A stretch of 32,174 nt of DNA from Candidatus Anstonellaceae archaeon (GTDB lineage Archaea; Micrarchaeota; Micrarchaeia; Anstonellales; Anstonellaceae), in assembly GCA_046295675.1 (NCBI GenBank), contig JBKBMW010000002.1, positions 1-32,174 on the forward strand, in the 5' to 3' direction. Made by a program: the position numbers and the translations under genes. Positions 1 to 31,352 of this stretch are shown here, one piece after another (position 1 is the first letter of the stretch; the number at the start of each line of letters is the position of its first letter). Below the pieces are notes generated by a model. It had not been told where the DNA came from, did not search any database, and was given only the letters and a program-made list of their open reading frames with translations.

Positions 1-528
1 GAAAAAGATAACGTATTAAAAGAGAAGTTAGAAAAGAAAAAAGAGGAATTAATAGAGACAGAAAAACAAAACCTATTAAGAGAGGAAGCTAAAGCAAAAT
101 GGGAAGAAATTCCCTCTGATGAGAAAAAAAAGCAAATTGATGAGGTATTAAACAACCAAGAAATTAAAAACGCAATTATAGATAAATATAAAAAAGAGCA
201 AGTTTTTCCACAAGCAGAAAATGAAGTAATAGAAGCTAAATTAAGGGAAGAAAATTTCCCATTAGATAAATTCTATAAGATTGTTTATAGGAATGTAAGT
301 GAGGATAATTTAACAGAAAGTTTAAATTCAGCCTTAAATTCCATGCTGGCTGAAGCAGTGCTTCCAACACTTGGTTCCTATCTTACAGGAAAATTGGGAC
401 TTGGTCTTGTTTTTAGTAATCCGAAATGGGAAGATTATATAAACGGAGTTTTTTCCAATCCAGAAACATCATTGAGTAACACTATACAACAGTGGCAACA
501 AACAACTAAAATGACCCAAAGTAGGTGA
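1..528 (+). CDS. 3' part of a larger ORF whose 5' end lies outside the window. A Lys/Glu-rich, probably coiled-coil segment is followed by a Gly/Leu-rich hydrophobic stretch (VLPTLGSYLTGKLGLGLVF). Hypothetical protein and first visible gene of the membrane-protein gene train.
   Basis: My hand translation shows frame +1 open from base 1 (EKDNVLKEKLEKKKEELIET...) straight into the listed 343..528 ORF. TGA stop at 526-528. Only 12 nt separate it from the next same-strand gene. Confidence 0.6.
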   Translation, partial: EKDNVLKEKLEKKKEELIETEKQNLLREEAKAKWEEIPSDEKKKQIDEVLNNQEIKNAIIDKYKKEQVFPQAENEVIEAKLREENFPLDKFYKIVYRNVSEDNLTESLNSALNSMLAEAVLPTLGSYLTGKLGLGLVFSNPKWEDYINGVFSNPETSLSNTIQQWQQTTKMTQSR

Positions 529-540
529 CAAGGTGTTTAA

Positions 541-1098
541 ATGAAAGATTTTAGCAAATTTTATCAAGCTTTGGAAAAGAAAGATAATCATCTAATTAAG
601 TTTTTATTAGAAAACTACAAAAAAGAAAATTCTTCTAGATTGGAAACATGGAAAAATATTACTGTTAAGAGCCTTTCTTCATTTCAAGGTTATTTTTTTA
701 TAAAAAATCAAGGTTTATTTTTATATGGAAAAATAGTTCCAGAAATTTTTTTTGTTTTTCTTTCAATAAATCACATCCTTGAGCAAACTCTCAAAAATTT
801 AACTTCTAATTCCAAACTTGTCAAAGAAAACATAAAAAATCTAGAAAATTTAGAGTCTAGATTTGAAAAACTTTCTTTAAAATTTAGTGTTTATTATCAG
901 ACAATGAGTGCAGTGGTAGGGGCATATCATTTCTATAAAAAAAACCTTTCTTTAACTATCCATTTTTTAGATAGATTGGAAAAACAATTTAATCTAAAAA
1001 AACTAGACTTGCTTTCCATTTCAGAATTAAATTCTATTTCTATAAGATTAACCAAGCTAGCTGAGGAATACCTACAAAAAGCAAATAAAAATCAATAG
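541..1098 (+). CDS. Hypothetical 185-aa protein, mostly helical and Lys/Leu/Asn-rich, with one hydrophobic segment (GLFLYGKIVPEIFFVFLSINHIL). No family recognised.
   Basis: ATG ORF with the SD-like AAGGTG 5 nt upstream (530-535). 8-nt gap to the next gene. Long open frame in an AT-rich, stop-rich background. Confidence 0.75.
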   Translation: MKDFSKFYQALEKKDNHLIKFLLENYKKENSSRLETWKNITVKSLSSFQGYFFIKNQGLFLYGKIVPEIFFVFLSINHILEQTLKNLTSNSKLVKENIKNLENLESRFEKLSLKFSVYYQTMSAVVGAYHFYKKNLSLTIHFLDRLEKQFNLKKLDLLSISELNSISIRLTKLAEEYLQKANKNQ

Positions 1099-1106
1099 GT
1101 TTCTCT

Positions 1107-2309
1107 ATGGTGGAATTATTAACCCAATATTTTTATGTAGGAACTGCTTTAAGCTCTTTAATTGTTGCATTGACTTATATGATTGGCTCTTTGTTTTCTT
1201 CAGAGCCTTTAAAAGGCTGGGCAAGAAAGGAAATAGCTGATTTGCTTTTTATTGTTCCACTCTTTTATATTCTTGTCTTTTTTTTATCTAATTTTTCTTC
1301 TGATGACCAAATAAATATAGTATCTAACTCATTTGGGCCAGAAAGTTTTTTTTATAAGGATCTAACCAACTTTTCCACTCAACTTATTACAAATGTTTTT
1401 TATTTTTCTGCAGTTTCATCTTACAATTATAATTATCAAGTTGGTTTGTCTGTCTCGGATTTAGTACCAATATCAATCCCACAATGGTTTAATTTTGGTG
1501 GAGGATTATCCTCATCTCAATATCCTGGTTATGGTTCTAATATAATTTTAAACCAACTTTTCTTTGGGATAGATTACTGTTTTAATATACTATTTCTTCT
1601 TAATTCAATCTTCCTAATTTTTAGTTTTTTAGTTCTTATATCAATAAATTTTCTTCTTCCTTTAGGCATTTTTCTTAGAGTTTTTCCATTTACAAAAAAA
1701 GCAGGTGGATTTATTGTGGGCTATTGTTTAGCAGTTTTATTTGTGTTTCCTTTTGCAGCCCAATTGAGTGCAGGCCTATCCTCTTTGGTTTTAGAAAAAG
1801 CTAAAAAAGATGGTTTTATTTCTTCAATTCCAAATTTGGAATACTCTGATAGACCACCTATAAAAAATTTGAATGCTGAACTTATTAGGAATTACATTTT
1901 GAGTCCTTTTTACATTATCCCTACTTCTGTAATTGCTAATGCCATTGCTTCTTTACTTGCTTTTATTGGAGTACCGCCAGGTTTTTCTATTGACAACTTT
2001 TTTCAATTACTTGTTAGTGCAAGCACTCCAATTGCCCAAATAATTCAATATATTATTAATTTAGTCAAAAAGATAATTCCAATTGCTATTGGAGGAACAT
2101 ATCCTAAATATGCAAAATCCACAGCTGATATTATAAAAAGTTATTATAAGCCTATAGTCACAAATATTTTACCAACCTTAAGTTTATACTTTTTAGTAAT
2201 TCTTCTTTCTGTTATTTTTCAACTTACTCTTACAATAGTTTTAGGGAGAAATCTATCTAATTTCTTTGGCCAAGAAGGCCAGCTCTATGCACTTTACAAA
2301 ATTCTCTAA
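1107..2309 (+). CDS. Paralog P1 of a six-member polytopic membrane protein family. This is the minimal 400-aa version with no signal peptide; it starts directly at TM1.
   Basis: Contains all three family blocks: YMIGSLFSSEPLKGWARKEIADL, LPLGIFLRVFPFTKKAGGFIVGYCLAVLFVFPF, and a C-terminal TM plus tail FFGQEGQLYALYKIL. About 5 hydrophobic helices. Confidence 0.85.
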   Translation: MVELLTQYFYVGTALSSLIVALTYMIGSLFSSEPLKGWARKEIADLLFIVPLFYILVFFLSNFSSDDQINIVSNSFGPESFFYKDLTNFSTQLITNVFYFSAVSSYNYNYQVGLSVSDLVPISIPQWFNFGGGLSSSQYPGYGSNIILNQLFFGIDYCFNILFLLNSIFLIFSFLVLISINFLLPLGIFLRVFPFTKKAGGFIVGYCLAVLFVFPFAAQLSAGLSSLVLEKAKKDGFISSIPNLEYSDRPPIKNLNAELIRNYILSPFYIIPTSVIANAIASLLAFIGVPPGFSIDNFFQLLVSASTPIAQIIQYIINLVKKIIPIAIGGTYPKYAKSTADIIKSYYKPIVTNILPTLSLYFLVILLSVIFQLTLTIVLGRNLSNFFGQEGQLYALYKIL

Positions 2310-2319
2310 GGTCGAGATA

Positions 2320-3279
2320 ATGCTAAAAAATTTATTATTTTTGATTTTGTTTGCATGCATTCTTTATAGTCAATCCACTCAAAATTATGGCCCAGTGCAA
2401 TGTTTTTCTTTTTCTTTGGATGAATTGTTTAATCCAGAAGCTCAAAAATCATTTAATCTTCCTATTGTTTTTTCAATAATGATTTCTTTAGTGGTTTTGT
2501 CCTATTTTTTTGGCAATCTACTCAAAAATCCTCATCTACTTGTTTGGGCAAAAACCGAAGGAGTTAATGTTTTTTGGTCAGGGGTTTTGCTTATCTCTAT
2601 TAGTGGAGCAATTACTTTTTCTTGTACAATTGCAACCTTTTTTGTCCCAGACTTAAAAACTTCTCCGCTTTCTTATTTATCGAATTATTTAAACAATATA
2701 TTCTCATTAGGAAAAAGCTATTCAATAGATCTTTTAAAAAGTTCATTTAATGATATGTTTTCTTCTATGGAACTAAATTCACCATCTTCTATTTATTTTG
2801 GAACTTCACAATTTGGAATTTATTATCTGGCAGGAAAAAAAGAATGGGCATCATATAAAGAAACTCTTAACTCTTATTTAGTTCCAATTTTAGGAATGAT
2901 TTATGCTCAAAAATTCATAATTGAAAATTTATTTTCTCTTATAGTGCAGATAGTTCTACCAACTTCTCTATTTATAAGAATCATCCCAATTTTTAGAGAT
3001 GTAGGAGACTTTTTAATAGCAGTGTGCCTTTCAATCTATTTCTTTCTGCCAATAATCTATTTTGCCACATTTTCTTCTGTTACCAATACCTTTGGCTCGT
3101 TTTCTCCTGATGCTCTTAATTCTGTTGTTTATCTTTATGATTCTACTATAGAAAATGCTTTAACTTTTATTGCCTTTCTTACTATACTGGCAGTGTTTAT
3201 TCCAAATTTGATTTTGGTAGTGATAACCGCCTCCTCCATGGCTTTATATAAAGCTATAAAAGGATTTTTCAGTGGGTGA
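2320..3279 (+). CDS. Paralog P2 of the membrane family (about 319 aa from ATG 2320), with an N-terminal signal-like peptide MLKNLLFLILFACILYSQ.
   Basis: The track ORF 2266..3279 begins at a TTG inside P1. ATG 2320 lies 10 nt after the P1 stop and yields a signal peptide like those of P3-P6. Family blocks: YFFGNLLKNPHLLVWAKTEGVNV and LPTSLFIRIIPIFRDVGDFLIAVCLSIYFFLPI. Short tail AIKGFFSG. Confidence 0.8.
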   Translation: MLKNLLFLILFACILYSQSTQNYGPVQCFSFSLDELFNPEAQKSFNLPIVFSIMISLVVLSYFFGNLLKNPHLLVWAKTEGVNVFWSGVLLISISGAITFSCTIATFFVPDLKTSPLSYLSNYLNNIFSLGKSYSIDLLKSSFNDMFSSMELNSPSSIYFGTSQFGIYYLAGKKEWASYKETLNSYLVPILGMIYAQKFIIENLFSLIVQIVLPTSLFIRIIPIFRDVGDFLIAVCLSIYFFLPIIYFATFSSVTNTFGSFSPDALNSVVYLYDSTIENALTFIAFLTILAVFIPNLILVVITASSMALYKAIKGFFSG

Positions 3280-6200
3280 TTGGATTTGAAAAAATTAATT
3301 CTTTTAATAATTTTTTTTGGTTTATTAAATTCGCAAACAACAAAACAAAACGATATTACTAAACTTGTCGAATTTACTAAGGACCAACTCCTAAATAACC
3401 CCCCCACCTTAATTTCTTCTATTCTTAATAATTATTCTACTTTGTTGATTTTGCTTTTTGCTTTAGCTGTTTTCATTTTAGCAATTGGTTATTTTGGGGC
3501 TTCTTTTTTTGATTTAACTGAAACCAAGGTGTTTATTAAAACAGAAATCGGTCAATTAATTTTAACTGCCATATTTGCAGGTTCTTTATTTGGAATAATA
3601 ATTTTTGTAGATAGACTTATAATTTCAAGTGCAGATTTTTTGGTTTCACCATGCGGGGAAAATTATGTTTATGCTCAAAACATTCCAATACCTATTCAAT
3701 ATGCAAATTGTTATCTAGATTCTTTAATCAAATTGGCTGACAAGGCATTGGAAGAAAATATAAAAGAATCAATAGAAGCTGGGAGGGAGACCTATAAACA
3801 AGTAGGTTATCAAGTTTCTGTTTCTCCTCTTTCAGGTTATTATTCCTTCAGACCTGCTGCATTTAAAAGGTTAGATGTGGAGATAAAAACTGCAGAGTCA
3901 CATTTTTTATCCTCTTTCTTAATCAGCCTAATATCTCAAAAAGCCTTTTTGAATTATATAGCACCAGTCTTTGGAATATTTTTATTATTTATTGGTTTAT
4001 TATTTAGAATTTTGTTTTTTACAAGAAAGCTTGGGGGTTTATTAATAGCAGCAGGTTTTGGTTTGCTTTTGATCTGGCCTCTAACCTACATGATCTCCTG
4101 GTTTACCTTTCGAGCAGGAATATTTGGTTCTCAAAACTTAGGAGAAGAAAGTGCTTTTTGTCCCAAAGAATGCCAAATCCCAGTTCCTGTTGCTTACAAT
4201 TTTTTAGCTAATCCAAAAGGAGAGTACAAACCAGAGACTATGCTTACTCTTGAGGAAGTAGCAGCAATTTTAAAAGAAAAACCAGAGAATAAAAATCAAT
4301 TTGAATTTTTAATTGAAAAGGGAATTCAGCCTTGTTTTGTTACTGATAGTGATAAAACTAAAAAATTTGGAATAATTAGTGTAAATGATTCAGAAAATTG
4401 TGATGAATCTTGCAGAGAAATTCCTTTAAATCTTCAAGTTTGCAAGGAACAAGAAAAACATTGCGATGCTCTTCCATTAGCCTGTAAAATAATCAGGTCT
4501 ATGGGACTGGAAAACTATACCTCATATTATCAAAAAAATTCTCAATATTGCTCTAACAAAAGTGTTTGTTCCAATTGCCCAGATTCTTGTAAATACCAAT
4601 TAAGGGAAATTCGTTATTCTTCTGATCCTTCCTTTATTCCAAAAGATCCAACCGGTGTTGGGATCATTCCCAGAACAGATTTAAAAAATACTATAAATTG
4701 TAGTTCCAAATGTGAAAAATGCCCTCCAGTTTGTAGATATTATTCCAAAAAAAACGATGGAACTTTTTTCTTTTTAAATAAGGATAGTGCAGAGTGTAAA
4801 AATTGTGATGATTGTTTTAACTATAAAGAACCTTCCACCCAACTCCCTATTTGTATGACTTATGTTCCTTTGATTTCAGTAGGAAACTGCCAACAGCTTT
4901 GTGGAATACCTTACTCTATAAGAAATGCCCCAAATAACAATATCTGCCCAATTGATTGCAGAATATATTTTGATAGCACTACTGATAAATATAAAGACCC
5001 AGTTTTTAGTTCTTTTTGTGAAAAAAATGGTGAATTTTTTGAAGCTTGCAACCGCTGTCCTATAGAGTGCAAAATAAATGCATCTGAAGTAATAAATCAA
5101 ATAGCAAAACAACAAAATCCCTCTTGCTCTCTCCCCCCTACTTTTTCTAATGGTCAGATGGATAATTCAATAAATAAGAATTGTGCAAGATGTGACCCAT
5201 CCTGTAGATTTTCAAATCCTTCTTCTATTGCATCTGCTCAAATTAAGAGCAGCTCAGGAGTTGATATAAACAATATAGAAAGTTATATTCCTATTTTTTC
5301 TGAATTTTATGCAAAAACTTTTGTTCAACAAAACTGTAGTTATAGTTCATCACCTTATGTTGAGTGTCCTACAGAGAGGAATGGTAATATATACACTGAT
5401 TGTAACTGGAAAGAAGGATCAGATTCATCTAAAACACTTCCAACCTATTCTCCAGCTAAGATAATTTATCCAACTACAGGGGATAATCCATTCTGCCCGG
5501 ATTTTATTGCCAAATTGCAAAATTTTGTTTTATTATCGTCTGATGAAAACAACCACATTATTGTAAAAGCAAATCAGTACCTTTCACATCTTTGTACTTT
5601 AGATAAAGATAGTGAAAAGTTTTGTTCTTCGCCTTATTGTCCTTCATCCTGCTATTATAACTCCTGGCCAAATTTTGCAGCTTTAGAAAATATCTCAAAT
5701 ATCACTTCAAAAATAAATTTTGCTCTGTCCAATTGCAATTTTAATGAAACACAAAAAGGCTGCTATTATTACAATTATCTCAATATGGTAGTTTTGAATT
5801 ATTCTGGACAATATTACTTGCCCAAATCAGCTGTTCAAAGCTGTTTCCCTTCTATTTCTTCAATAAGCTCTGATCTTTCTAACTTTGCCTGTTATCCAAT
5901 TTTAAAAATTCCTTCTGCTTCAGACTTTTCTTATTGTGGTAATTATATTGATTATTCAAATCCTAACAGGTCCATGATAAAAGGCTCAGCATGCCCATAT
6001 GAATGCAGATATGATGAATTAAAGAAGCAAAAAAATCCACAAATATGTGGTGATTTTACTCTCTCATTTACTTCTTCCAATCCCTCTCATAATTGTGAGC
6101 CATTCTGTAATGGTTTAATTAGATCATCAGATCTATCCTATTGCAACTCAGAAGCATATTCATGTACCCAACAACAAGCTCAAACCTATTGGGTAAGAAT

Positions 6201-7338
6201 TAATTCCATTCCAATCAATAAATCCCATAGCAACCGATTATGTAATCAATCTGTAGTTTTATATAATTCATCAATCACTTATAAAAAAGGAGATCTAGAT
6301 CGAAATAATCAACCATATGCTAAAGATTGGTGGGAAGACAGCTGTACCTATATAGAAAACGGTGAAACCAAATATATAAACTTCACTTTGGTAAGTGGCT
6401 ATTCTCCCTACCTTTGTTCTGCTGGGCATAAATATATAGGATTGGATGAACTAATTTCTTCTAGTGGTTATTCTCAATATAGAGAATGCGGCGAGATTGA
6501 TACTAACAAAAATCCTAACTATATTTTTTGCGGAAATTATAGTATAAATGTTGGGGGAACAAAAGCAGTTATAAAAGCATTAGATGATTTATGTTATGCT
6601 TCCTACAATGCTAGGGCAATGCCTGGATTAGCTTATCATTCTATTGGAGGAAACGGAGATTTCTCAACTAAAGTTAATGGTCAAATAAAGCAAAATATTC
6701 AATACTTTGATAATTGTCAACAATGCCCAGTGGTATTTAGAATCAAAAATTTGCAAGATGCTTATCTTTTGGGAATTCCTGGGATATTAACAAATCTTCT
6801 TAATTGTCAAAAGTGCAATATAAAAATAAACCCTCCCTATTCGTCTTCTTGTGAATTCAAATACGAGAAAGCCATTGGTTGCCCATTAAGATGCAGAATT
6901 GCAACTTTAGATGGAAGTCTTCCTTATGGCTGTGATCCAGATATAGATGATCAAAAAGAAAAAAGTTATGTTAATCCAGAAGTCGGATATGCTTGCGATG
7001 ATTATCATGCTTTAAGTTGCAGGATAAATTTAAGGGAGGATTTATGTGATGGTTGCAGTGAATTTTGTGAATCAGATTGTCAATCACTTCCTTATATAAG
7101 AAGAGATTGTTCTAGCTGTAATCCTGCTGCAAGTTTTGGTGCAAATTCCTTATTAGATGCTACTACCTCTCAAGCAGGTCTTGTTACCCAACCAGGTTGG
7201 ATAAGAATTGGCTTATTACTAATACCTTCTATAATTTTACCTTCATTTTCAATAGTAATTTTAGTATCATTTATAAAAGGTCTATCTCAATTCTTAGGAG
7301 GCGATATAGAAATACCTGGTTTGTATAAGTTGATTTAG
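3280..7338 (+). CDS. Paralog P3 (1352 aa). The family core carries a ~1000-aa cysteine-rich extracytoplasmic insertion between the fourth and the last TM helix.
   Basis: No ATG is available, so the start is TTG at 3280 (as in the track) or TTG at 3286, which sits 6 nt after GGTGA (3275-3279). Signal-like N-terminus (MDL)KKLILLIIFFGLLNSQ. Blocks: YFGASFFDLTETKVFIKTEIGQL and FIGLLFRILFFTRKLGGLLIAAGFGLLLIWPL. C-terminal TM plus tail LSQFLGGDIEIPGLYKLI. About 76 Cys by hand count. Confidence 0.85.
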   Translation: MDLKKLILLIIFFGLLNSQTTKQNDITKLVEFTKDQLLNNPPTLISSILNNYSTLLILLFALAVFILAIGYFGASFFDLTETKVFIKTEIGQLILTAIFAGSLFGIIIFVDRLIISSADFLVSPCGENYVYAQNIPIPIQYANCYLDSLIKLADKALEENIKESIEAGRETYKQVGYQVSVSPLSGYYSFRPAAFKRLDVEIKTAESHFLSSFLISLISQKAFLNYIAPVFGIFLLFIGLLFRILFFTRKLGGLLIAAGFGLLLIWPLTYMISWFTFRAGIFGSQNLGEESAFCPKECQIPVPVAYNFLANPKGEYKPETMLTLEEVAAILKEKPENKNQFEFLIEKGIQPCFVTDSDKTKKFGIISVNDSENCDESCREIPLNLQVCKEQEKHCDALPLACKIIRSMGLENYTSYYQKNSQYCSNKSVCSNCPDSCKYQLREIRYSSDPSFIPKDPTGVGIIPRTDLKNTINCSSKCEKCPPVCRYYSKKNDGTFFFLNKDSAECKNCDDCFNYKEPSTQLPICMTYVPLISVGNCQQLCGIPYSIRNAPNNNICPIDCRIYFDSTTDKYKDPVFSSFCEKNGEFFEACNRCPIECKINASEVINQIAKQQNPSCSLPPTFSNGQMDNSINKNCARCDPSCRFSNPSSIASAQIKSSSGVDINNIESYIPIFSEFYAKTFVQQNCSYSSSPYVECPTERNGNIYTDCNWKEGSDSSKTLPTYSPAKIIYPTTGDNPFCPDFIAKLQNFVLLSSDENNHIIVKANQYLSHLCTLDKDSEKFCSSPYCPSSCYYNSWPNFAALENISNITSKINFALSNCNFNETQKGCYYYNYLNMVVLNYSGQYYLPKSAVQSCFPSISSISSDLSNFACYPILKIPSASDFSYCGNYIDYSNPNRSMIKGSACPYECRYDELKKQKNPQICGDFTLSFTSSNPSHNCEPFCNGLIRSSDLSYCNSEAYSCTQQQAQTYWVRINSIPINKSHSNRLCNQSVVLYNSSITYKKGDLDRNNQPYAKDWWEDSCTYIENGETKYINFTLVSGYSPYLCSAGHKYIGLDELISSSGYSQYRECGEIDTNKNPNYIFCGNYSINVGGTKAVIKALDDLCYASYNARAMPGLAYHSIGGNGDFSTKVNGQIKQNIQYFDNCQQCPVVFRIKNLQDAYLLGIPGILTNLLNCQKCNIKINPPYSSSCEFKYEKAIGCPLRCRIATLDGSLPYGCDPDIDDQKEKSYVNPEVGYACDDYHALSCRINLREDLCDGCSEFCESDCQSLPYIRRDCSSCNPAASFGANSLLDATTSQAGLVTQPGWIRIGLLLIPSIILPSFSIVILVSFIKGLSQFLGGDIEIPGLYKLI

Positions 7339-8463
7339 ATGAAAAAAATTTCTTTTATATTTCTCATTTTTGTTTTTAGTTTCGGAATAATTTTTGCCCA
7401 ATCTCAACAAGATTCTTGCTTACCTAAGTCCATTAATTTGGCTCTTGGAATAAGCATCGGAATAATTTCTCTTCTTTTTTTGTTCGGATATTTATTTAAT
7501 TTTGAACAATTAAAATTCCTAGCAAAAAAAGAATTTGGTGAATTGTTTTTAGTTGTATTTTTTCTTTTATCTCTCTCTTTTTTCCATTTGTCCTTTTCTG
7601 AGCAATTAGCCAAAATATTTAACTTTGATTCAAATGGTTGGAGTGACAGATTAAATTATAAAAACTGGGGTACAGACAAGCAAAACAACCCAGTATTAAA
7701 AGTTACAAAGAATATTTTAGAAAACCTAGATTCATCTAAACTAACAATTCAGCAAAAAGCTTTTATTTTAATAGAAGAAAATAAACAACTTCTTGAAATT
7801 TTAACCATCAAGACAATAAATTTTGGAAATTCTATTTCAACTGAATCTTCAAAAATGAGCTATATAAATTTTCTTGGTCTTGGTTTTGGATATTCTCTTT
7901 GTTCTACTTATTCTGTTTTTAGAGGACCTGTAGGTTTACTTTTAAACGCTGAGGCTACTGCTTCCATTGCATTATTTTTTAGTGCATTTTTTAATTCAGT
8001 TTTTCAATCTTATCTATTATGCTATCTTCTTCCTATCGGAATATTTCTAAGGCTTTTGAGCTTTACAAAAAAAGCAGGGTCTTTATTAATTGCTCTTTCT
8101 ATCTCATTTTATTTTGTTTTTCCAACTGCAATTGTGGTATTTAATGACCTCTATAACTATTATTACATGAAGCTTTCTTTACAAACATCTAAAGATTCCA
8201 TCATTGTGCAGCAATATAACAATTTAAATTCATATTTCTCTCTTCCTGTTGACTGTGATATAAATGACCAAGATATGAATAAGACTGTTTCAAATATCAT
8301 GAAGACTTTACTAAAAAATCTAAAAGAAATTTTGCTTTTTATCATTTTAAAATGCATATTTATTTTATTATTTTCTCTTTCATTCACCCTAGTATTTGCT
8401 TCTTATCTTGCCCATTTCTTGGGATTGGATATAGATTTATCAACTTTGGCACGGTTGAGTTAA
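7339..8463 (+). CDS. Paralog P4 of the membrane family (374 aa), with signal-like N-terminus MKKISFIFLIFVFSFGIIFAQ.
   Basis: The ATG directly abuts the P3 TAG stop. Blocks: FGYLFNFEQLKFLAKKEFGEL and LPIGIFLRLLSFTKKAGSLLIALSISFYFVFPT. Tail LAHFLGLDIDLSTLARLS. Confidence 0.85.
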   Translation: MKKISFIFLIFVFSFGIIFAQSQQDSCLPKSINLALGISIGIISLLFLFGYLFNFEQLKFLAKKEFGELFLVVFFLLSLSFFHLSFSEQLAKIFNFDSNGWSDRLNYKNWGTDKQNNPVLKVTKNILENLDSSKLTIQQKAFILIEENKQLLEILTIKTINFGNSISTESSKMSYINFLGLGFGYSLCSTYSVFRGPVGLLLNAEATASIALFFSAFFNSVFQSYLLCYLLPIGIFLRLLSFTKKAGSLLIALSISFYFVFPTAIVVFNDLYNYYYMKLSLQTSKDSIIVQQYNNLNSYFSLPVDCDINDQDMNKTVSNIMKTLLKNLKEILLFIILKCIFILLFSLSFTLVFASYLAHFLGLDIDLSTLARLS

Positions 8464-8464
8464 T

Positions 8465-11400
8465 ATGAATAAATGGTTTTTATTATTTGCATTCTTTTGG
8501 ATCGGACTGCTATTCTCTCAGTTTCCTCCACCACCTCCAAATGTACTTTTTGAAGTTTATGATAGCCCAGTGATTGACCCTTCTAATCCTCCTCAAAGAA
8601 CTACTGAAATCACAAAATTAAAACCATTTTTTCCATATTTAATCTTAGACTGTCCTCTTTATAATGAGGGTGAGAGTGATTGTATTTTTACTATCAATTT
8701 AGTCAATTTTACTTGCCACTATCCAGATCCTGATGGTATTCCTATTGATACTGTTCATACCCTGACTTTTGCTAATCCAATTGTAGTTGCAAACGGAGAG
8801 AGAGTTTTTTTTTCTTTTGACCCTTCTAATCCCTCTAATCCCCTTTATTCTTTTTGGATAACGCATCCCTCCCCTATTCCTCCTAACACCAAGTCTGCAG
8901 CTGTTTGTTCTAGCAAAAAATATGCAAATTTTTCTTATATAATAGAGGCAAGAAGAGCTGGATTGCCAAGCTCTATTTTTGAAAAATCCAATTTAGTTAA
9001 TATATTTCATCACCCTCCAGAAATAAGCTTTCCCTTTACATCCACCCCTCTTTGTAATTTAAAATTTTCTGTAAGTGATTTGGATGAGAGTTATGGTAAT
9101 AGCGTTTATATAAAAATTACATTATCAAATTCCACAAATAGTTGCAACTTTATATACAATCCAGGAAGTGGTATAGGTTACTTCCCACCCAAAGAGAAAG
9201 ATAATTGCGATCCTTTTGAGTTTTCTGCCCGTGAAATGGTTTTGAATCCTTCTCCTCCACCTATAAATACAACCTTTATTTTACATCTAAAGGCAACTTA
9301 CTCTCCTTATAATATTACTGTATTCCCTCACAATAGCTATAGTTATACTCTAAATAATTATAAAAAATATTTTATGGTTAATGGCCCTCCATATGAACTA
9401 ATCAATTTTTTTTGCAATAGGGTAAGCAAAAACTATGACCTTTTTGGTTCAGCACATGTTTTTTCAAATAAAATAGAAATTGAAGCAAATGCAACTACTT
9501 CTAGGATAAACTTTAATAATCACTTTTTTAAAAATCTAACAATAGAAGTCTTGAATGACCAAGGTAGCACTATAAATAGTTATAATTTTTCCTGGGTATG
9601 TGATAGTGGTGTATGTAGCTCTGCTCAATTTGATTATTCAACAAATGCTAGGAATTTAATAATAGACCAAAAGACATTTACTCCAATCCAAAATTCTTTT
9701 AATAGCACTCTTACTTTAGACACCTCTCGACTCTGTCCACAAGGGGATAAAAATAAGCTTAAAATAAAATTATTTGGTTATGGGTTTGATTGGGAGAATA
9801 AAGAATTGTTATTATATAACGGAAAGTGTGCTGGAACCCCGCATTTGGACGCAGTTATTTATTCATCACCCTCACAAAAAGGTGATATAATAGTACTATC
9901 TGATTTTACTCAAAGAGAAGATAATTTCAAATATATTATTGTTGAGCTAAAACAGCTAACAAATATTCAAAAACCACCAACTTTAGAAATAAAATACAAA
10001 ACCCATAATGATGCAATTGTTCGTTCAAAGGTTTCATCGATATCTTCTGCTAAATCTATTAAAATTTCTTATGATATAAATTGGATAAATGTCAGTATAA
10101 TCTCACCAAATGTACCTGTAATATATAAAGAATTTACTTTTCCTCTACCTCCCCCAATTGAAGTATTAGAGAGATGGAAAATAGATGACCAATTAATAAA
10201 TGAGGAACAAAAAGATGATATACTTAAAAATAAGCGTATTTATGTAGGAGAGAAAGATAAAGCTTTGGTAAATTTAGTGTTTAAAGTACCATATAATATA
10301 GACGGATATAATTTTGATCAATATTTATCTCCATATTTAGAAGGTGATTGTAGTTCTAGCTCAGTTAAATCAGGAAACGAGTATTTTGTCAATATTGATC
10401 TAAAAAAAGGTGCCTGCATATATAAAATAAGGGGAAAGTCACAAACACAACAAAATCAAAACCCATCTTTAAGTAAATTTTTAACTTATATAATATATTC
10501 TAAGAACTTTTTTGTCCCAAATAAGCCACAATCCTTTTGTGATTCCACACAACTTTTAAGCAGTACTTACTATAAGTTCTTTGCTGTTGCTCTTGCCTCT
10601 TTGATCCTAATAATTGGAATTGGATACATGGTTGGTTCTTTTCTCTCCCATCCTGCTTTGCTTGAATGGTCAAAAAGAGAAATTTTAGAGGTAATTTTGT
10701 TAGGAATTTTCATTTCTTTAGTTCCACAATTTTTATTATTTTCTTGTTCTGAAAAAATATCTATAGGTTCATTTCTTAACCTATTTCCATTAAAAAATAC
10801 AGTAGTTGAAAAAGGAGCCTCCTTATTAGAATTTGTTCAAAAAATTATGTTAGATTTAATAGAAAGGTCACACACTGTCATAACTATTTTAAGAAGAGAT
10901 ATATCCTATTTTCAAATACTTGCCTCTTATTATCATTTTAATTCGAGTTTCGTATCTGACATTGTTAGTTTTCTTGGTGTTGGTTTTAGCACAGGTTTTA
11001 ATGAAAATCCTTATTCAGGTTTATATCTACAAATATCTGTATTTAACTTTTTATTGCAACTAAATAACGCCTATTTATTTAGTGCCTTAACACATTACTT
11101 TATTCTTTTCTTTTTATCTTCTTCTACAGGAATGATTGTTCTTTTGTTTCCATTTGGATTTTTGTTTAGGTGTTTACCTTTTATAAAAAATGTTGGTTCT
11201 GTTCTTATTGCAATAGGTCTTGGATTTTATATCTTATTTCCAGCAGCTTATGTAATATATGGATTAATACTTTCTAACGATCATTTCAAGTATTCAACTT
11301 TCTGTGCTATTTTTCCACAAGATTCTCATTGCCAAGATTGTAATATTTATCAACTCTCTTTTTCGGAAAATCCAAAGTGCAATCTTATTTATACTAATGG

Positions 11401-11722
11401 TTGGGAAGATTTCAAAGACAAGAAATTGAATTATCAAAAAGATTTAGAAGAAGTTGGTAGTTTTTCAAAAAATACTTTTCCAGATCAAGACTCAATAACA
11501 AAAATTCAAAAAAATAAAGCATCATTGCAACCAGTATATCCATTATCACAAGATAGTTTTGATCCAGATTTAACAAAATACTTTAGTTTAACTGCTCTTA
11601 ATTTTATTTTAGTCCTGTTTATCCCATCTGTGATATTACTAATTACACTTTCATTTGTTAGAGATATTGCCTCGATTTTGGGAGGTGACATTGATGTCTC
11701 AAGGCTTATGTATCTGGCTTAA
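8465..11722 (+). CDS. Paralog P5 (1085 aa). A signal peptide and a ~690-aa Pro-rich, beta-strand-like ectodomain are fused in front of the family core.
   Basis: ATG lies 1 nt after the P4 stop. N-terminus MNKWFLLFAFFWIGLLFSQFPPPPP. The core starts near nt 10570. Blocks: YMVGSFLSHPALLEWSKREILEV and FPFGFLFRCLPFIKNVGSVLIAIGLGFYILFPA. Tail IASILGGDIDVSRLMYLA. Confidence 0.85.
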   Translation: MNKWFLLFAFFWIGLLFSQFPPPPPNVLFEVYDSPVIDPSNPPQRTTEITKLKPFFPYLILDCPLYNEGESDCIFTINLVNFTCHYPDPDGIPIDTVHTLTFANPIVVANGERVFFSFDPSNPSNPLYSFWITHPSPIPPNTKSAAVCSSKKYANFSYIIEARRAGLPSSIFEKSNLVNIFHHPPEISFPFTSTPLCNLKFSVSDLDESYGNSVYIKITLSNSTNSCNFIYNPGSGIGYFPPKEKDNCDPFEFSAREMVLNPSPPPINTTFILHLKATYSPYNITVFPHNSYSYTLNNYKKYFMVNGPPYELINFFCNRVSKNYDLFGSAHVFSNKIEIEANATTSRINFNNHFFKNLTIEVLNDQGSTINSYNFSWVCDSGVCSSAQFDYSTNARNLIIDQKTFTPIQNSFNSTLTLDTSRLCPQGDKNKLKIKLFGYGFDWENKELLLYNGKCAGTPHLDAVIYSSPSQKGDIIVLSDFTQREDNFKYIIVELKQLTNIQKPPTLEIKYKTHNDAIVRSKVSSISSAKSIKISYDINWINVSIISPNVPVIYKEFTFPLPPPIEVLERWKIDDQLINEEQKDDILKNKRIYVGEKDKALVNLVFKVPYNIDGYNFDQYLSPYLEGDCSSSSVKSGNEYFVNIDLKKGACIYKIRGKSQTQQNQNPSLSKFLTYIIYSKNFFVPNKPQSFCDSTQLLSSTYYKFFAVALASLILIIGIGYMVGSFLSHPALLEWSKREILEVILLGIFISLVPQFLLFSCSEKISIGSFLNLFPLKNTVVEKGASLLEFVQKIMLDLIERSHTVITILRRDISYFQILASYYHFNSSFVSDIVSFLGVGFSTGFNENPYSGLYLQISVFNFLLQLNNAYLFSALTHYFILFFLSSSTGMIVLLFPFGFLFRCLPFIKNVGSVLIAIGLGFYILFPAAYVIYGLILSNDHFKYSTFCAIFPQDSHCQDCNIYQLSFSENPKCNLIYTNGWEDFKDKKLNYQKDLEEVGSFSKNTFPDQDSITKIQKNKASLQPVYPLSQDSFDPDLTKYFSLTALNFILVLFIPSVILLITLSFVRDIASILGGDIDVSRLMYLA
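11681..11688 (+). promoter_or_regulatory. Shine-Dalgarno GGAGGTGA for P6, embedded in the P5 coding sequence.
   Basis: Complementary to the conserved archaeal 16S 3' end. 5-nt spacing to ATG 11694. The same bases encode the Gly-Gly-Asp of the P5 tail. Confidence 0.6.
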
Positions 11723-12824
11723 AAAATCTTATTTGTTTTTATTTTTTGCATTGTTATTTTCTATGGTCTTTTCCCAAGATTGGGGAAGTGCAAAAAGTGC
11801 AAATATTCAACCTACAGATTTTAAGTTATTTAATATTCCTTGGAAATCTACCTCAAATCAAGAAATTTCTTGGTTGAGCATTGCTTCAATAGTTATCTTA
11901 ATTTGTTTTTTAGCAAATACGATCTTATTTATGCTTGGAAAAGCATTTGAGTTAGATAATATAAAAAAATTTGCTATTTCAGAATTTTTTCAAACCACTG
12001 CTACAGCACTTATGATTGTTTTTTTTCTCTCTGGTATCACAGCTGCTTTTGATTTAATTCAAAAATATTTTCTCCCTTCTGGTTCATCTGTTTCTTGCAA
12101 TGGAAACATCATCGGTATTTGGGATAATAATTCTGGACCATTTACAATTATCAAATGTAAAATTTCAGAATATCTTTCTACTGCTTACTCCCTATTTAAT
12201 GCTACTTATATTGCTAATATTGATAAAGAAGTTGAAGGTTCGCAGTGTTATGGAACTTCTGGATTTACTGAATGCAAAATCTGGAATTCAGATCTTTATA
12301 GAGAAGTTGAAACTTATCACTATATTGCAAACAGGTTGACAAATGTTTCTATCTCTTTAGTTGCCCAGTATTTCTTTATAGATTATTTGCAAAATAATCT
12401 TTTATCTTTCTTTTTACCTGTTGGCCTGTTGCTTAGACTTTTTCCTCCTTTAAGAGGAATTGGAAGTTTGTTTATTGCTATAGTTATTGGTTTTTATTTT
12501 ATTTTTCCATTAACCTATCTTTTTATAGAACCTTCTATTAAAATAGAAGAACAAAAAGTCCAGAAGCCAAACTTAGCAAAAAATGTTTGTTTTTCAAAAT
12601 TTAGCCCTTTTGTTTCCACTTCACTTTTGCAACCAGAACCTCCATCTACTACTGGTTTACAATTCTCTTCAGATATAGGGCAGTTCATTGTAGAAATTAC
12701 ATTAGGCACATTTTTTTATCCATTCCTTTCTCTTGTAATAACTGTCATCTTTATAAATTTCTTAGCAGGATTTTTATCAGCAGACAGTGGTATGTTGATT
12801 CATTTCATAGCAAAGAATCTATGA
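11694..12824 (+). CDS. Paralog P6 of the membrane family (about 376 aa from ATG 11694).
   Basis: The track ORF starts at TTG 11655. ATG 11694 is preceded by the strong SD GGAGGTGA (11681-11688) and gives the signal-like MSQGLCIWLKKSYLFLFFALLFSMVFSQ. It overlaps the P5 3' end by 29 nt. Blocks: FMLGKAFELDNIKKFAISEFFQT and LPVGLLLRLFPPLRGIGSLFIAIVIGFYFIFPL. Tail LAGFLSADSGMLIHFIAKNL. Confidence 0.8.
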   Translation: MSQGLCIWLKKSYLFLFFALLFSMVFSQDWGSAKSANIQPTDFKLFNIPWKSTSNQEISWLSIASIVILICFLANTILFMLGKAFELDNIKKFAISEFFQTTATALMIVFFLSGITAAFDLIQKYFLPSGSSVSCNGNIIGIWDNNSGPFTIIKCKISEYLSTAYSLFNATYIANIDKEVEGSQCYGTSGFTECKIWNSDLYREVETYHYIANRLTNVSISLVAQYFFIDYLQNNLLSFFLPVGLLLRLFPPLRGIGSLFIAIVIGFYFIFPLTYLFIEPSIKIEEQKVQKPNLAKNVCFSKFSPFVSTSLLQPEPPSTTGLQFSSDIGQFIVEITLGTFFYPFLSLVITVIFINFLAGFLSADSGMLIHFIAKNL

Positions 12825-16842: not shown

Positions 16843-16914
16843 TTTTATTTAAAAGCTTATTTCTCTAAAATATTTTTATACATCATCTATTTGTTCATTA
16901 AAAAGGTGGAGCAT

Positions 16915-17160
16915 ATGGCAGAGAAAAATTTAAAGGAGATCCTAGAGCTTATGGATTTTTTAATAGGAGATAATTCTTTGCCAAGAAATATCAGAAAAAC
17001 AATTCAGGAATCAAAAGAAATCCTTCTTTCAGAGCAGGATTTTCAAACTAAAGTCTCAGCAACAATACAAACACTTATTGGAGCATCAGAAGATGTTAAT
17101 CTTCCAATGCATGCTCGCACTTATATTTGGGATATTCTAACCAAATTAGAAGCATTATAA
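16915..17160 (+). CDS. UPF0147-family small helical archaeal protein (about 81 aa).
   Basis: The motif GDNSLPRNIRKTIQESKEIL matches the conserved D-x-S-[VL]-P-R-N-I-R core I recall for archaeal UPF0147 proteins. ATG 16915 is preceded by GGTGGAG (16905-16911). The track start at TTG 16891 is probably too long. Confidence 0.65.
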   Translation: MAEKNLKEILELMDFLIGDNSLPRNIRKTIQESKEILLSEQDFQTKVSATIQTLIGASEDVNLPMHARTYIWDILTKLEAL

Positions 17161-17197
17161 TTTTTTTATAATTCTTTTTTATTTTGATACTAATTAA

Positions 17198-17205
17198 TTT
17201 ATATT
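17198..17205 (+). promoter_or_regulatory. Candidate TATA box (TTTATATT) for the polD operon, leaderless-type spacing.
   Basis: The box starts 33 nt before the DP1 ATG (17231), and there is no SD in between. Archaeal TATA boxes sit about 26 nt upstream of the transcription start. Confidence 0.3.
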
Positions 17206-17230
17206 TTAACTTCTTATTTTATTTGATAAT

Positions 17231-18820
17231 ATGAAGGAGGATATTGATTATCTTTATTCAAAAAATATCAGGCTTACTAAAAAAGCCTTTGATTTTTTAA
17301 TAGAAAACAAAATTAGCAAAGCAACTTTAGATGCTATAATAAAAAAATGTAATTTTTTAGTTAATTTAGAAGATGTTTTAGAAGAGTTGGCATTGGAAAA
17401 AAAATTTAAAGAGGACAGAAAGATAGAAATTGAGCAAAAAGTTGAACTTCCAAAAGGGGAGGAAGTATATGTTCATAAAGAAAGTCAAAAAGAAAAAAAA
17501 GAAGAATGCCCAGAAAAAGATGAAATCAAACCAAAAACAGGTTTGGCAATAAAAGAAGTAGAAATCTTGCGCTCTTCTTCTTTTAAACCAATAGCAAAGG
17601 ATTATGATTCAAAAATAGAAATCCTTCAACAGGAGATACAAACAACGACCTATGATGGAGACATAGAAACTTTTGTTTCATATTTTAGAGATAGATTTAA
17701 CCAAGAAGCCTCCATCCTAAAAACTCGCCAATCAAACCTCCCTATTTTAAGATTAGATCAATTAACAAAAAATGTTGGTCAACAGGCAAGGATTATTGCA
17801 ATGGTGTATGAGAAAAGAATAACTTCAAAAGGAAACTTAGTTTTAGAAGTAGAAGACGAATATGGAAAAGCAAGGGTGGTGGTACCTTCAACTGAAAACT
17901 GCTTTTTAGAAGCACAAACTATCCTAAAGGATGATATATTGGCAATAGAAGGAAAAATTTTAGAGAATATGTTTATAGCAAAAAGTATTTTTTGGCCAGA
18001 TATTTCTGTGCTCAAGACCATTCCAAGCTGCCAAGAAGATCTTGCAATTGTTTATTTGTCTGATCTTCATTTTGGAAGCAGATATTTTTTAGAAAAAGCC
18101 TTTAGGCGATTTTTACGATGGCTTGAAGGAAAGGAAGGAAATGAAAAACTTGCTTCAAAAGTAAAATACATCATTATAGCAGGAGACATAGTAGATGGTA
18201 TTGGGGTTTATCCAACGCAAGAAAACGATTTGACAATAAAGGATATATCTTTGCAGTATAAAGAATTTGAAAAAAGTATAGAACAAATTCCTGATTATAT
18301 TTCAGTTATCGTAGGGCCAGGCAATCATGACGGAGTTAGAAGGGGAGAACCCCAGCCTCCATTAGATAAAAGCCTGATCAGTCTTGATATTCATTTAATC
18401 GGCTCTCCAGCTATGGTAAAAATTGAAAAATTTAATCATCTTATTTATCATGGGACTTCTTTGGATTCTATTATTGCAAATTTACCTGGTTTATCTTATT
18501 CAAAACCTGAAGCAGCAATGAAAGAATTACTTAAAAGAAGACACCTCTCTCCCCTTTATGGAGATAATTTGATTGTACCAAGTAGTAAGGATCTAATGGT
18601 CATTCCACAAGAGCCAGATGTTTTACACATGGGGCATATTCATAAAAATGGTTCTGCAAAATACAGAGGGGTTTTAATGATAAATTCAGGTACCTATCAA
18701 GATAGAACTGATTATCAAATAAAAATGGGGCACATACCAACACCTGCTATTACTCCTGTTTTAGAGTTAAAATCAGGTCAGCTTCATCACCTCAAATTTT
18801 TAGAAGAGGGGGGTTTATGA
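17231..18820 (+). CDS. polB: DNA polymerase II (family D) small subunit DP1, the calcineurin-like phosphodiesterase / 3'-5' exonuclease subunit.
   Basis: Metallophosphoesterase motifs YLSDLHFGS, IIAGDIVDG, GPGNHD and HMGHIHK sit in the C-terminal half behind an OB-like middle region. It is immediately followed by, and overlaps, DP2. Confidence 0.92.
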   Translation: MKEDIDYLYSKNIRLTKKAFDFLIENKISKATLDAIIKKCNFLVNLEDVLEELALEKKFKEDRKIEIEQKVELPKGEEVYVHKESQKEKKEECPEKDEIKPKTGLAIKEVEILRSSSFKPIAKDYDSKIEILQQEIQTTTYDGDIETFVSYFRDRFNQEASILKTRQSNLPILRLDQLTKNVGQQARIIAMVYEKRITSKGNLVLEVEDEYGKARVVVPSTENCFLEAQTILKDDILAIEGKILENMFIAKSIFWPDISVLKTIPSCQEDLAIVYLSDLHFGSRYFLEKAFRRFLRWLEGKEGNEKLASKVKYIIIAGDIVDGIGVYPTQENDLTIKDISLQYKEFEKSIEQIPDYISVIVGPGNHDGVRRGEPQPPLDKSLISLDIHLIGSPAMVKIEKFNHLIYHGTSLDSIIANLPGLSYSKPEAAMKELLKRRHLSPLYGDNLIVPSSKDLMVIPQEPDVLHMGHIHKNGSAKYRGVLMINSGTYQDRTDYQIKMGHIPTPAITPVLELKSGQLHHLKFLEEGGL

Positions 18821-21800: not shown

Positions 21801-22218
21801 TTATACTTCTTTAGGAAAAAAAATGGAGAAAAAAATAGAATCTCAGTTTATTTTGGAGGATAAAATACGAGCTGTAAATGCTTCAGATGTTGCAAAAAGG
21901 GTTTTGTTATCCCATTTTTTACCAGATATATATGGTAATCTTCGTTCCTTTTCAAGACAAGAATTTAGATGTTCCCAATGTAATGCAAAATTCAGGCGTG
22001 TTCCTTTAGTAGGAAAATGTATTTTTTGTAATAGCAATCTTCTTCCAACTATCTATAAAGCAGGAATAGAAAAATATCTTGTTGCTACTGAAAAATTAAT
22101 AGAGCGATATAATCTTGAAGATTATCTTAAGCAAAGAATTGAGCTAATAAAAAAAGATATAAATTCAATATTTAGTGAGGAAAAGAAAAATCAGATACAG
22201 CTTTCTGACTTTATGTAA
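18817..22218 (+). CDS. polC: DNA polymerase II (family D) large catalytic subunit DP2, 1133 aa with no intein.
   Basis: Signature HCAKRRNCDGDEDS (the PolD catalytic NCDGDED motif). Zn-finger clusters CKNCGKSNYRPFCLYCGGKC and CSQCNAKFRRVPLVGKCIFCNS. ATGA start/stop overlap with DP1 at 18817-18820. Confidence 0.95.
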   Translation: MSIEKYFSDLEENLQKIYDIATHARKVGLDPEDQVEIKIASDVAGRVEGLVGPPGIANEIRKLEKEGKSRDMVAKEIVHKICKGEIIKGNAEKLIEQAVRTGVCILTEGVLVAPTEGIASVKIHSPSINNPHDGNPDGSSYLAIYFAGPIRSAGGTASAQAVLLADLARRHFNIGRYRPTDTEIERYVEETNIYNDRCARLQYKPTDEEIRFIIKNSPICINGEPTEQIEVSIYRDLKRVKTNKIRGGAILVLCEGLAQKAPKVSKYALKIGLEEDWSFLNTMVRGIKKSEKKFELKEENKFLDEIVAGRPIFSYSLARGGFRLRYGRTRATGIAAKAIHPATMYILNSFLAIGTQIKIDRPGKGAVVSSCDSIMGPIVSLNNGSVVYVDNIEKAQRIVEDIKEILFLGDLLVSYGDFLKANHPLLPSPFVEEWWEKIAQAKQIKYKKNILASEAFELSFKHNIPLHPSFTYFWEELNSQQIKELALWLFENAKLELDIFSNLKFLIIEAAPQKRFLELIGLPHKVEQNKIIIEKEEAISLLLSLGIYRKGAKALFFDRFEKLFDPNKSVLENLFTLSGVKIMPKGTVYIGVRMGRPEKAKRREMAPPVHVLFPVGHLNKSREILKQYSRLKSEQKKQGRGIYVELANYFCKNCGKSNYRPFCLYCGGKCQLMEVNEPNSQKNNKTKKYYTQKFLDIVKEVETTKNRLNSSSLAEIKGVHGLISLYKIPEILDKGFLRAKHGLTIFRDGTCRFDMTNMPLTQFTASDIGTNINKLIELGYNVDKEGKPLKNENQLLSLMPQDIIIPYKGGEYLLAVSKFIDELLVDVYQIKPFYNLKKVEDLIGHLCIGLSPHTSAGVLCRIIGFTNTNVCFAHPYFHCAKRRNCDGDEDSIILLLDALINFSTKFLPSTRGGTMDAPLVLTTRIDPSEVDDEVHCMESVSSYPLEFYEKTITFSSPSDVEIKTIKDLLHTPEQYANLDFTHSVSNISQGPHATSYTSLGKKMEKKIESQFILEDKIRAVNASDVAKRVLLSHFLPDIYGNLRSFSRQEFRCSQCNAKFRRVPLVGKCIFCNSNLLPTIYKAGIEKYLVATEKLIERYNLEDYLKQRIELIKKDINSIFSEEKKNQIQLSDFM

Positions 22219-22229
22219 AAGGTGTTAAA

Positions 22230-31344: not shown

Positions 31345-31352
31345 TTTATCCC

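Follow-up and report, generated by a model that had tools for sequence, protein, structure and literature searches.

The stretch analysed here, nucleotides (nt) 1 to 32,174 of contig JBKBMW010000002.1 from a Candidatus Anstonellaceae archaeon (the window below), encodes six tandem membrane proteins, P1 to P6, which we call the hexad. All six are ancient paralogs belonging to one family of polytopic membrane proteins, as yet uncharacterised. This family is new and has no detectable relative in characterised families. Every untruncated related locus, nearly all of them from Micrarchaeota, holds six tandem members. The best explanation, offered tentatively and with slightly less than even confidence, is that the hexad forms a heterohexameric envelope-spanning attachment or transfer apparatus, or a channel, for host interaction. 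The six genes and two large domains encoded in them are listed here (TM, transmembrane helix; aa, amino acid residues; scores are those of the independent hidden Markov model, HMM, described below).

1107-2309, plus strand: P1, hexad position 1, no signal peptide; Block B (a shared helix-loop-helix) at nt 1656-1754; 79 bits
2320-3279, plus strand: P2, hexad position 2, signal peptide, the most compact subunit; 86 bits
3280-7338, plus strand: P3, hexad position 3; 134 bits, the HMM match being split in two stretches
4147-7179, plus strand: ectodomain insert of P3 between TM4 and TM5, aa ~290-1300, ~1000 aa, Cys-rich
7339-8463, plus strand: P4, hexad position 4, signal peptide and 5-TM core; 154 bits
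8465-11722, plus strand: P5, hexad position 5, signal peptide, 5-TM core C-terminal (aa ~700-1085); 141 bits
8537-10534, plus strand: N-terminal extracellular extension of P5, ~665 aa, between signal peptide and TM1
11694-12824, plus strand: P6, hexad position 6, the best-conserved subunit, overlapping the end of P5 by 29 nt; 311 bits

An earlier note on this DNA had proposed that the six proteins are paralogs sharing conserved blocks, and had quoted a peptide for Block A (the end of TM1 and the following loop) and one for Block B from each of them. All twelve strings are present in the six open reading frames (ORFs) where they had been placed. Block A starts at aa 24, 80, 71, 49, 721 and 92 of P1 to P6 and Block B at aa 184, 231, 237, 231, 895 and 254, counted on the ORFs 1107-2309, 2266-3279, 3280-7338, 7339-8463, 8465-11722 and 11655-12824. 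The paralogy itself was borne out in two ways. Pairwise BLASTP matches among P1-P6 were collinear, with E values of 1e-8 to 1e-3 (in a database of eight proteins only), and all six proteins were recognised by an HMM built independently from 101 relatives, all from other organisms and each less than 35% identical to any window protein. Composition-preserving shuffles, 200 per protein, scored 7.4 bits at best, and the flanking proteins P0 and P7 scored about 0 bits.

The window has about 30% GC and P1-P6 are rich in F, I, L and K, so that the blocks might have been a compositional artefact of AT-rich hydrophobic coding sequence. This explanation is refuted and we give it practically no chance. 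Scores of 79-311 bits against at most 7.4 for the shuffles indicate homology rather than AT-biased hydrophobic composition; moreover, one-to-one orthologs exist in other genomes, and members from organisms without the F/I/L/K bias of the window keep the motifs LP-x-G-x-x-L-R-x-F-x-x-T-R-G-x-G ... G-F-Y-x-x-F-P and the C-terminal LGG[DE]...L.R. A further point of the earlier note, a 17-nt identity between P1 and P4, was right as to location, as TTTACAAAAAAAGCAGG occurs in exactly two copies (at 1689 and 8062), but not as to significance: the identical FTKKAG peptide together with the codon bias of the window gives P~0.06, which makes the identity unremarkable.

The family is large. A profile search of 1.84 billion representatives returned 2,754 representative clusters at E<=1e-3; at the stricter E<=1e-10 there were 1,863. 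The relatives were found by this exhaustive representative search; word-indexed protein searches recovered few of them, apparently because hydrophobic words saturate the candidate list. Named family members are all annotated as hypothetical proteins of Micrarchaeota, Parvarchaeota, Bilamarchaeaceae or Anstonellaceae metagenome-assembled genomes, and literature searches found no paper describing the hexad family. When one genome per GTDB species was scanned with the P6-subfamily alignment A4 (the broader alignment A3 being too diverse for this purpose), 36 loci were obtained, 29 of which are labelled in their record titles as Micrarchaeota/Micrarchaeia or families thereof and five as 'uncultured archaeon', while the remaining two carry the labels 'Ca. 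ainarchaeum' and 'Marsarchaeota'. All ORFs of all loci were then searched with the family HMM. Six tandem same-strand members were found directly, at E<=1e-5, in 21 of about 26 non-redundant untruncated loci, the window among them. In the other five the sixth member was recovered permissively or its absence was explained: L028 holds a weak sixth member found by permissive search (5e-14), one member had been removed by overlap filtering in L018, L020 and L031 (the first two with overlapping ORFs), and one hexad gene of L042 is split.

Sequence comparison across loci indicates that each hexad position is an orthologous group of its own with its own conserved peculiarities. Among 26 loci the best cross-locus match lay at the same position in 48-86% of cases (78% for position 2 and 86% for position 3) versus a chance expectation of 17%. 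Hexad genes b to f of Bilamarchaeaceae map in order onto P2-P6 and the next gene maps onto P7; gene a scores marginally higher with P5 (47.4 bits) than with P1 (45.4 bits). The orthologs of P1 in locus L001 and of P4 (P0002) are 40% and 43% identical to the window proteins, respectively. A long region after Block B is a trait of position 1 across loci, and in P1 the TM4-TM5 region is long and partly hydrophobic. Position 3 is marked by a Cys-rich TM4-TM5 insert of up to 1,214 residues with a median of 24 Cys. Long N-terminal extensions occur at positions 4 and 5 in some loci; those at position 5 are restricted to some lineages and reach 726 aa. Positions 2 and 6 are compact. Neither the P3 insert (1.6 N-X-S/T sequons per 100 aa) nor the P5 extension (1.5 sequons per 100 aa; 2.1% Cys) has a Pfam match.

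The starts of two genes deserve comment. For P2, ATG 2320 is most likely the start rather than TTG 2266, because the resulting signal peptide resembles those of the orthologs. For P6, the start is most likely ATG 11694 and not TTG 11655; the public gene call P0160 (353 aa) places it at 11763, and the signal peptide kept by orthologs would then be lost.

Each subunit has five core TM helices and a short amphipathic C-terminal helix; the C-tail of P2 is short and without the terminal helix. The topology of five TMs with the N-terminus outside and the C-terminus inside, as put forward in the earlier note, agrees with the signal-peptide-like segments at the start of P2-P6, with the loops, with AlphaFold and with the distribution of Cys; it is less certain for P1. 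An extra hydrophobic stretch (aa 268-293) lies between TM4 and TM5 of P1, which makes its TM count less certain than those of the others, and P1-type subunits may contain an extra hydrophobic hairpin and thus more than five TMs. The short conserved loops are Lys/Arg-rich and cytoplasmic, as had been argued: K+R amount to 0.22 per residue in the TM3-TM4 loop, where D/E hardly occur. This loop is exactly 10 residues long, and the TM1-TM2 loop exactly 15, in 114 of 114 aligned members. The variable regions fall outside, also as proposed, with lengths of 86-155 and 30-133 residues and a net acidic character in these 114 members. Cys content differs by compartment, being 7.3% in the P3 insert, 5.2% in P7 and 1.7-6.3% in the ectodomains of the accessory protein F0 (see below), against 0-0.2% in F0 cytoplasmic tails, and this partition supports the assignment.

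Conservation is concentrated on the cytoplasmic side. Between 95% and 100% of the 114 members share the residues E, P, G, R, R/K, G and P, and the near-invariant positions lie on the fixed-length cytoplasmic loops: E after TM1, LPxGxxLR-x5-[RK]-xxG, then P in TM4. TM5 and an LGG[DE]...L tail make up the C-terminal core motif. All six window proteins carry the core motifs of the family. On the outer side, the extracellular C299 is conserved in 89% of members.

An AlphaFold model of P6 from the 114-sequence alignment had a predicted local distance difference test score (pLDDT) of 83.3 and a predicted template modelling score (pTM) of 0.77. From the N-terminus it shows a signal-peptide helix, TM1 (60-84) and a helix of 38 residues (88-125). 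A 34-residue helix lies between two beta-hairpins (132-141 and 185-194), and the 49-residue helix that follows (199-247) ends in LPxGxxLR. After a tight turn come TM4 (251-278), a variable region modelled as disordered, TM5 (326-360) and a short helix at the end. These helices coincide with the TMs placed from sequence in the earlier note. In the model, TM2 and TM3 are predicted to run several nanometres beyond the membrane as a helical bundle capped by beta-hairpins. The P6 model found no significant Foldseek match in PDB or BFVD, its best PDB match being the non-significant XaxA (E=0.81, TM score 0.22, root-mean-square deviation 25 Å). A first model, of P4 from a 9-sequence alignment, was poor (pLDDT 60) and was discarded, its Foldseek matches being noise.

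That no characterised family fits, which the earlier note had suspected, held after Pfam, NCBIfam, PHROGs, PADLOC, PDB-sequence and Foldseek searches. Pfam, NCBIfam, PHROGs and PADLOC scans of P0-P7 returned nothing significant. PHROGs gave two weak matches only, at E=0.009 (P3 insert) and E=0.019 (P0), and PADLOC, which covers anti-phage defence, gave none. No recurrent family emerged from a Pfam scan of the 114 family members at E<=10, nor any match from a PDB sequence profile search with alignment A2. The same search with alignment A3 matched DNA polymerase III alpha (E~0.007); this result was rejected as an artefact because one apparently chimeric A3 row carries that domain. The representative concerned (candidate: P0116) contains a bacterial DNA polymerase III alpha domain (Pfam, 2e-42) and is probably a chimeric assembly or gene call.

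On sequence grounds, very large proteins appear always to go with the hexad, on one side of the membrane or on both. The genes that flank it in the window are the following.

1-528, plus strand: 3' end of an upstream ORF, Lys/Glu-rich, cysteine-free
541-1098, plus strand: P0, accessory gene, 185 aa, one hydrophobic segment, no cysteine, 8 nt upstream of P1
12826-16842, plus strand: P7, giant Cys-rich predicted lipoprotein, 1338 aa, 1 nt after P6

P7, whose start is probably ATG 12835 rather than TTG 12826, has the lipobox LVGC (FFLVGC) followed by a CC pair. Its homologs lie directly downstream of the hexad in 13 loci, measure 1235-1571 aa with 3.6-5.2% Cys, and in most cases have an L-x-G-C lipobox followed by CC. 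The lipobox, the CC pair and the Cys content point to a giant extracellular lipoprotein, and the homologs would define a family of giant archaeal lipoproteins without a Pfam domain. The known Micrarchaeota S-layer protein has PF05123 and almost no sulphur-containing amino acids (bioRxiv 10.1101/2021.04.28.441871); P7 has no Pfam domain, S_layer_N (PF05123) included, and is not low in sulphur.

In F0, present in 17 loci, the signal peptide is followed by a Cys-rich ectodomain (~150-290 aa), a single TM and a Lys/Glu-rich, practically Cys-free tail of 780-1,780 aa. No known domains were found in F0 proteins, and a Walker-A search found no conserved P-loop. The ORF at 1-528 occupies the position of a 503-aa protein of L001 in which a signal peptide and a small ectodomain precede one TM and a charged tail; that protein weakly matches the F0 family around the TM. 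The ORF probably represents the cytoplasmic tail of a type-I membrane protein like F0. P0 is not a hexad member and had no family match in Pfam, NCBIfam, PHROGs or PADLOC; a 191-aa protein with 31% identity to it stands at the same position in L001.

Clustering of the neighbouring ORFs distinguished three types of locus. Type 1, to which the window belongs, has the hexad followed directly by P7, usually with F0 as well, either after P7 or divergently upstream. Type 2 consists of a compact hexad with F0 divergently upstream in 7 of about 10 such loci; in six (L021, L029, L034, L037, L038 and L039) a PLD-family protein of 180-206 aa follows the hexad closely. This protein is anchored in the membrane at its N-terminus, has an intact HxK(x)4D motif and best matches the nuclease NucT (1e-16). 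Type 3 (L028 and L042, with fragments L041 and L035) begins with a polytopic protein of 250 aa; the hexad, two bitopic proteins of 275 aa each and an ATPase of about 500 aa follow in this order. Some hexads thus lack P7, and compact hexads without any large ectodomain exist. The FtsK/HerA-superfamily ATPase lies at these places.

L028, 12274-13779: ATPase, ~500 aa
L042, 12580-14100: ATPase
L041, 10543-11529: ATPase
L035, 4496-5782: ATPase

Its best NCBIfam matches are CedD (1e-19), CedB (8e-18), the VirB4-like CD1110 (2e-17) and HerA, all far below the family cut-offs. Such a CedB/VirB4-like ATPase stands beside the hexad in these four loci and is absent from the window and from the 13 window-type loci, in which no ATPase, pilin-like or relaxase gene was seen within +/-10 kb. 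Topoisomerase VI subunit B adjoins the type 3 locus and no relaxase or integrase was seen there; for these reasons that locus, too, is regarded as chromosomal.

Two genomes contain two hexads of different types, L010 and L021 in isolate LFW-35 and L009 and L039 in isolate SO_2017_LW4_168. In each, one hexad has giant inserts and P7 and the other is compact with a divergent F0; the system was therefore duplicated as a whole.

How the parts might work together can be proposed as follows. The six subunits would come together in equal numbers (1:1:1:1:1:1) as one hetero-oligomer, in the simplest case a pseudo-sixfold ring, with one copy of each subunit per complex since there are six paralogs and each orthologous group is kept in every genome. 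The Arg-rich loops and C-terminal helices would form a common cytoplasmic face or gate, and the helical ectodomains a stalk or vestibule beneath the S-layer. Giant disulfide-rich surface modules, namely the P3 insert, the P5 N-domain and the lipoprotein P7, would sit on this core, while F0 with its single TM and charged tail would couple it to the cytoplasm. The apparatus would contact partner cells and move macromolecules or metabolites across the symbiont's own membrane; a role in partner-cell contact and uptake is proposed because these archaea are host-dependent. A channel or translocation platform seems to us more probable than a passive anchor because elsewhere the same core is combined with a hexameric-type translocating ATPase or an anchored nuclease, and this pairing suggests a translocation channel, possibly for DNA. 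In the Micrarchaeota-related symbiont ARM-1, cryo-electron tomography revealed a 21-nm barrel-shaped envelope complex beneath the S-layer which docks host nanotubes (PMC11329633), and the hexad module is a candidate for this barrel. The more specific proposal that hexad, P7 and F0 constitute a symbiont-side intercellular junction, a connexon-like or type IV secretion system (T4SS)-independent channel that is the ARM-1 barrel and imports host DNA, lipids and metabolites, is quite unlikely.

Several points weigh against an attachment or transfer apparatus. The 32-kb window holds no ATPase or nuclease partner; these accompany 4 and 6, respectively, of about 30 loci and are confined to the variants. 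The P6 model gives no sign of a pore, and the conserved cytoplasmic loops could serve assembly or lipid contacts instead of gating. What suggests a 1:1 ring is solely the number and order of the genes and the structure of their operon, and the F0 identity of the ORF at 1-528 is deduced from position and composition only. The link to the ARM-1 barrel is circumstantial.

The main rival, in our view unlikely, is a very diverged T4SS/Ced-like origin: the hexad would be an extremely diverged VirB6/CedA-type component of a conjugation-like DNA-transfer machine, multiplied six-fold, with the ATPase of the window encoded elsewhere. NucT-family nucleases accompany T4SS and DNA-uptake systems, and NucT-like nucleases are found beside the compact hexads; the two 275-aa bitopic proteins and the 500-aa ATPase (best matches CedD, CedB, VirB4, TraC) that follow the type 3 hexads fit as well, as does the VirB6-like general architecture, polytopic with a large extracytoplasmic region. 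It also counts for this rival that VirB6 homologs in reduced epibionts diverge beyond recognition (PMC12102498). Against such an origin, TrbL/VirB6 (PF04610) gave no Pfam match for P1-P6 at E<=1, and neither TrbL/VirB6 nor Ced matched any of the 114 members even at E<=10. NCBIfam Ced models had no match in P1-P6 at E<=1 (CedB and CedD models are present there; a CedA model was not confirmed). The hhalign probability of the family profile with R388 TrwI/VirB6 was 0.25%, and the TrwI chains in the PDB library (7o3v/8rtd) were not among the Foldseek matches of the P6 model, none of which had E<0.8; TrwI appeared as noise only, with the low-confidence P4 model (E=3.3, TM score 0.14). The ATPase matches below cut-off and the lack of ATPase, pilin-like and relaxase genes in the window and its 13 counterparts speak against it, too.

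It is likewise unlikely that the hexad is a purely structural anchor, without transport, for giant adhesins or S-layer-associated proteins (the P3 insert, P5 N-domain and P7). It is the cytoplasmic loops and the C-terminal helix that are conserved most strongly, rather than the ectodomains, and an anchor explains poorly the compact hexads and the pairing with a giant cytoplasmic-tail protein, ATPase or nuclease, even though all large variable parts are extracellular and Cys-rich and P7 is always adjacent in window-type loci. The ectodomain helices, as modelled, would reach several nanometres above the membrane, and Micrarchaeota have a membrane-to-S-layer gap of 20-25 nm that needs a span (bioRxiv 10.1101/2021.04.28.441871), which suits an anchor; P7 and F0, on the other hand, do not fit the known S-layer protein of these archaea. 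The tight operon linkage with P7 and the conserved extracellular Cys of the subunits (C299) could also indicate an insertase, or a machine for exporting and folding the giant Cys-rich proteins encoded alongside, that stays outside the final surface structure. We consider this very unlikely: P7, P3 and P5 have ordinary Sec-type signal peptides or a lipobox, two subunits themselves carry giant domains, hexads without P7 occur, and no similarity to YidC/Oxa1, Sec, Tat or DsbB/VKOR was found in Pfam, NCBIfam or Foldseek searches.

The genomic setting of the hexad is chromosomal. Housekeeping genes in the window encode UPF0147, PolD DP1, PolD DP2, a HAD hydrolase, GlmS, a glycogen debranching enzyme, Pth2 and NurA. 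The gene order from hexad through PolD is also present in the Anstonellaceae genome L003, and this shared synteny with UPF0147, PolD DP1 and DP2 identifies the hexad region as chromosomal, not mobile, DNA of a DPANN archaeon. The UPF0147-PolD-HAD order is kept in L003, so the hexad module sits among core replication genes. The genes from P0 to P7 are separated by gaps of 0-10 nt or overlap, and we infer one operon with P1-P6 co-transcribed. No tRNA or Rfam features were found in the window, and sigma-70 promoter and terminator scans were at chance level, the bacterial consensus being uninformative for an archaeon. Other features downstream of the hexad are these.

16891-23078, after P7: UPF0147, PolD small subunit, PolD large subunit and HAD hydrolase, in this order; the PolD genes overlap by 4 nt
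25650-26438, minus strand: solitary IGPS/TrpC-like gene (Pfam IGPS, 5e-14)
28977-30017: NurA gene
30031-31356, minus strand: 441-aa ORF

The IGPS/TrpC-like gene, with no other tryptophan-pathway genes nearby, is odd in a reduced genome. The 441-aa ORF is extremely rich in Lys, Glu and Asn, of low complexity and without a Pfam match, and has a small Cys cluster, CQCEGCAGNRGCCG, near residue 75. NurA adjoins it, with no HerA adjacent.

The genomes of Micrarchaeota and of the other DPANN archaea are tiny, and these organisms depend on host cells, to which they attach and from which they import material. The module described here is conserved, comprises eight genes in about 16 kb, or about 2% of the genome (the largest contig of the closest relative measures 881 kb), and occurs in about 35 sampled species. 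As a conserved module without a detectable characterised relative, it is therefore a prime candidate for host-contact machinery, and the hexad makes the question of host contact directly testable. An obligate six-paralog membrane hetero-oligomer with a new fold, as proposed here, would be a new type of membrane complex whatever its function.

In comparison with known systems, the family is rated new because the VirB6 profile, hhalign and fold tests fail and the other analogies are conceptual only. Connexin and innexin hemichannels resemble the hexad, in a purely conceptual way, in being multi-pass, with outside parts stabilised by Cys, which could dock onto a second cell, and with six subunits, but connexins have 4 TMs with the N-terminus inside, as opposed to 5 TMs with the N-terminus outside, and neither Pfam nor Foldseek matched connexin, innexin, pannexin or CALHM. 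The likeness to the alpha-helical pore-forming toxins XaxA/YaxA and to Tc toxin TcA shells, which gave the best though non-significant Foldseek matches, lies in very long paired helices rising from a membrane hairpin and is not a real match. MCM2-7 and Rpt1-6 are, like the hexad, six ancient paralogs with each orthologous group retained in every genome; they are soluble AAA+ ATPases, whereas the hexad consists of membrane proteins without a nucleotide-binding motif, and its ring is only inferred. FliP/FliQ/FliR (SctR/S/T) are helical-hairpin subunits that build one pseudo-symmetric helical channel. They share with the hexad the tandem encoding of related membrane subunits; the hexad differs from them in size and TM number, in the absence of FlhA/FlhB or an ATPase, and in having no Pfam Bac_export or Foldseek match. 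Tandem VirB6 paralogs with giant extensions are known in obligate symbionts (Rickettsiales). The hexad, unlike these arrays, always has six members, each position with its own orthologs; pilin, VirB3/8 and relaxase were not recognised with it, and sequence, profile-profile and fold similarity to VirB6 are lacking. VirB6/TrbL and CedA are nevertheless the nearest functional analogy, being polytopic like the hexad, with no fewer than five TMs and a large extracytoplasmic region, and partnered with VirB4-type ATPases; a CedB/VirB4-like ATPase lies beside the hexad in the four variant loci.

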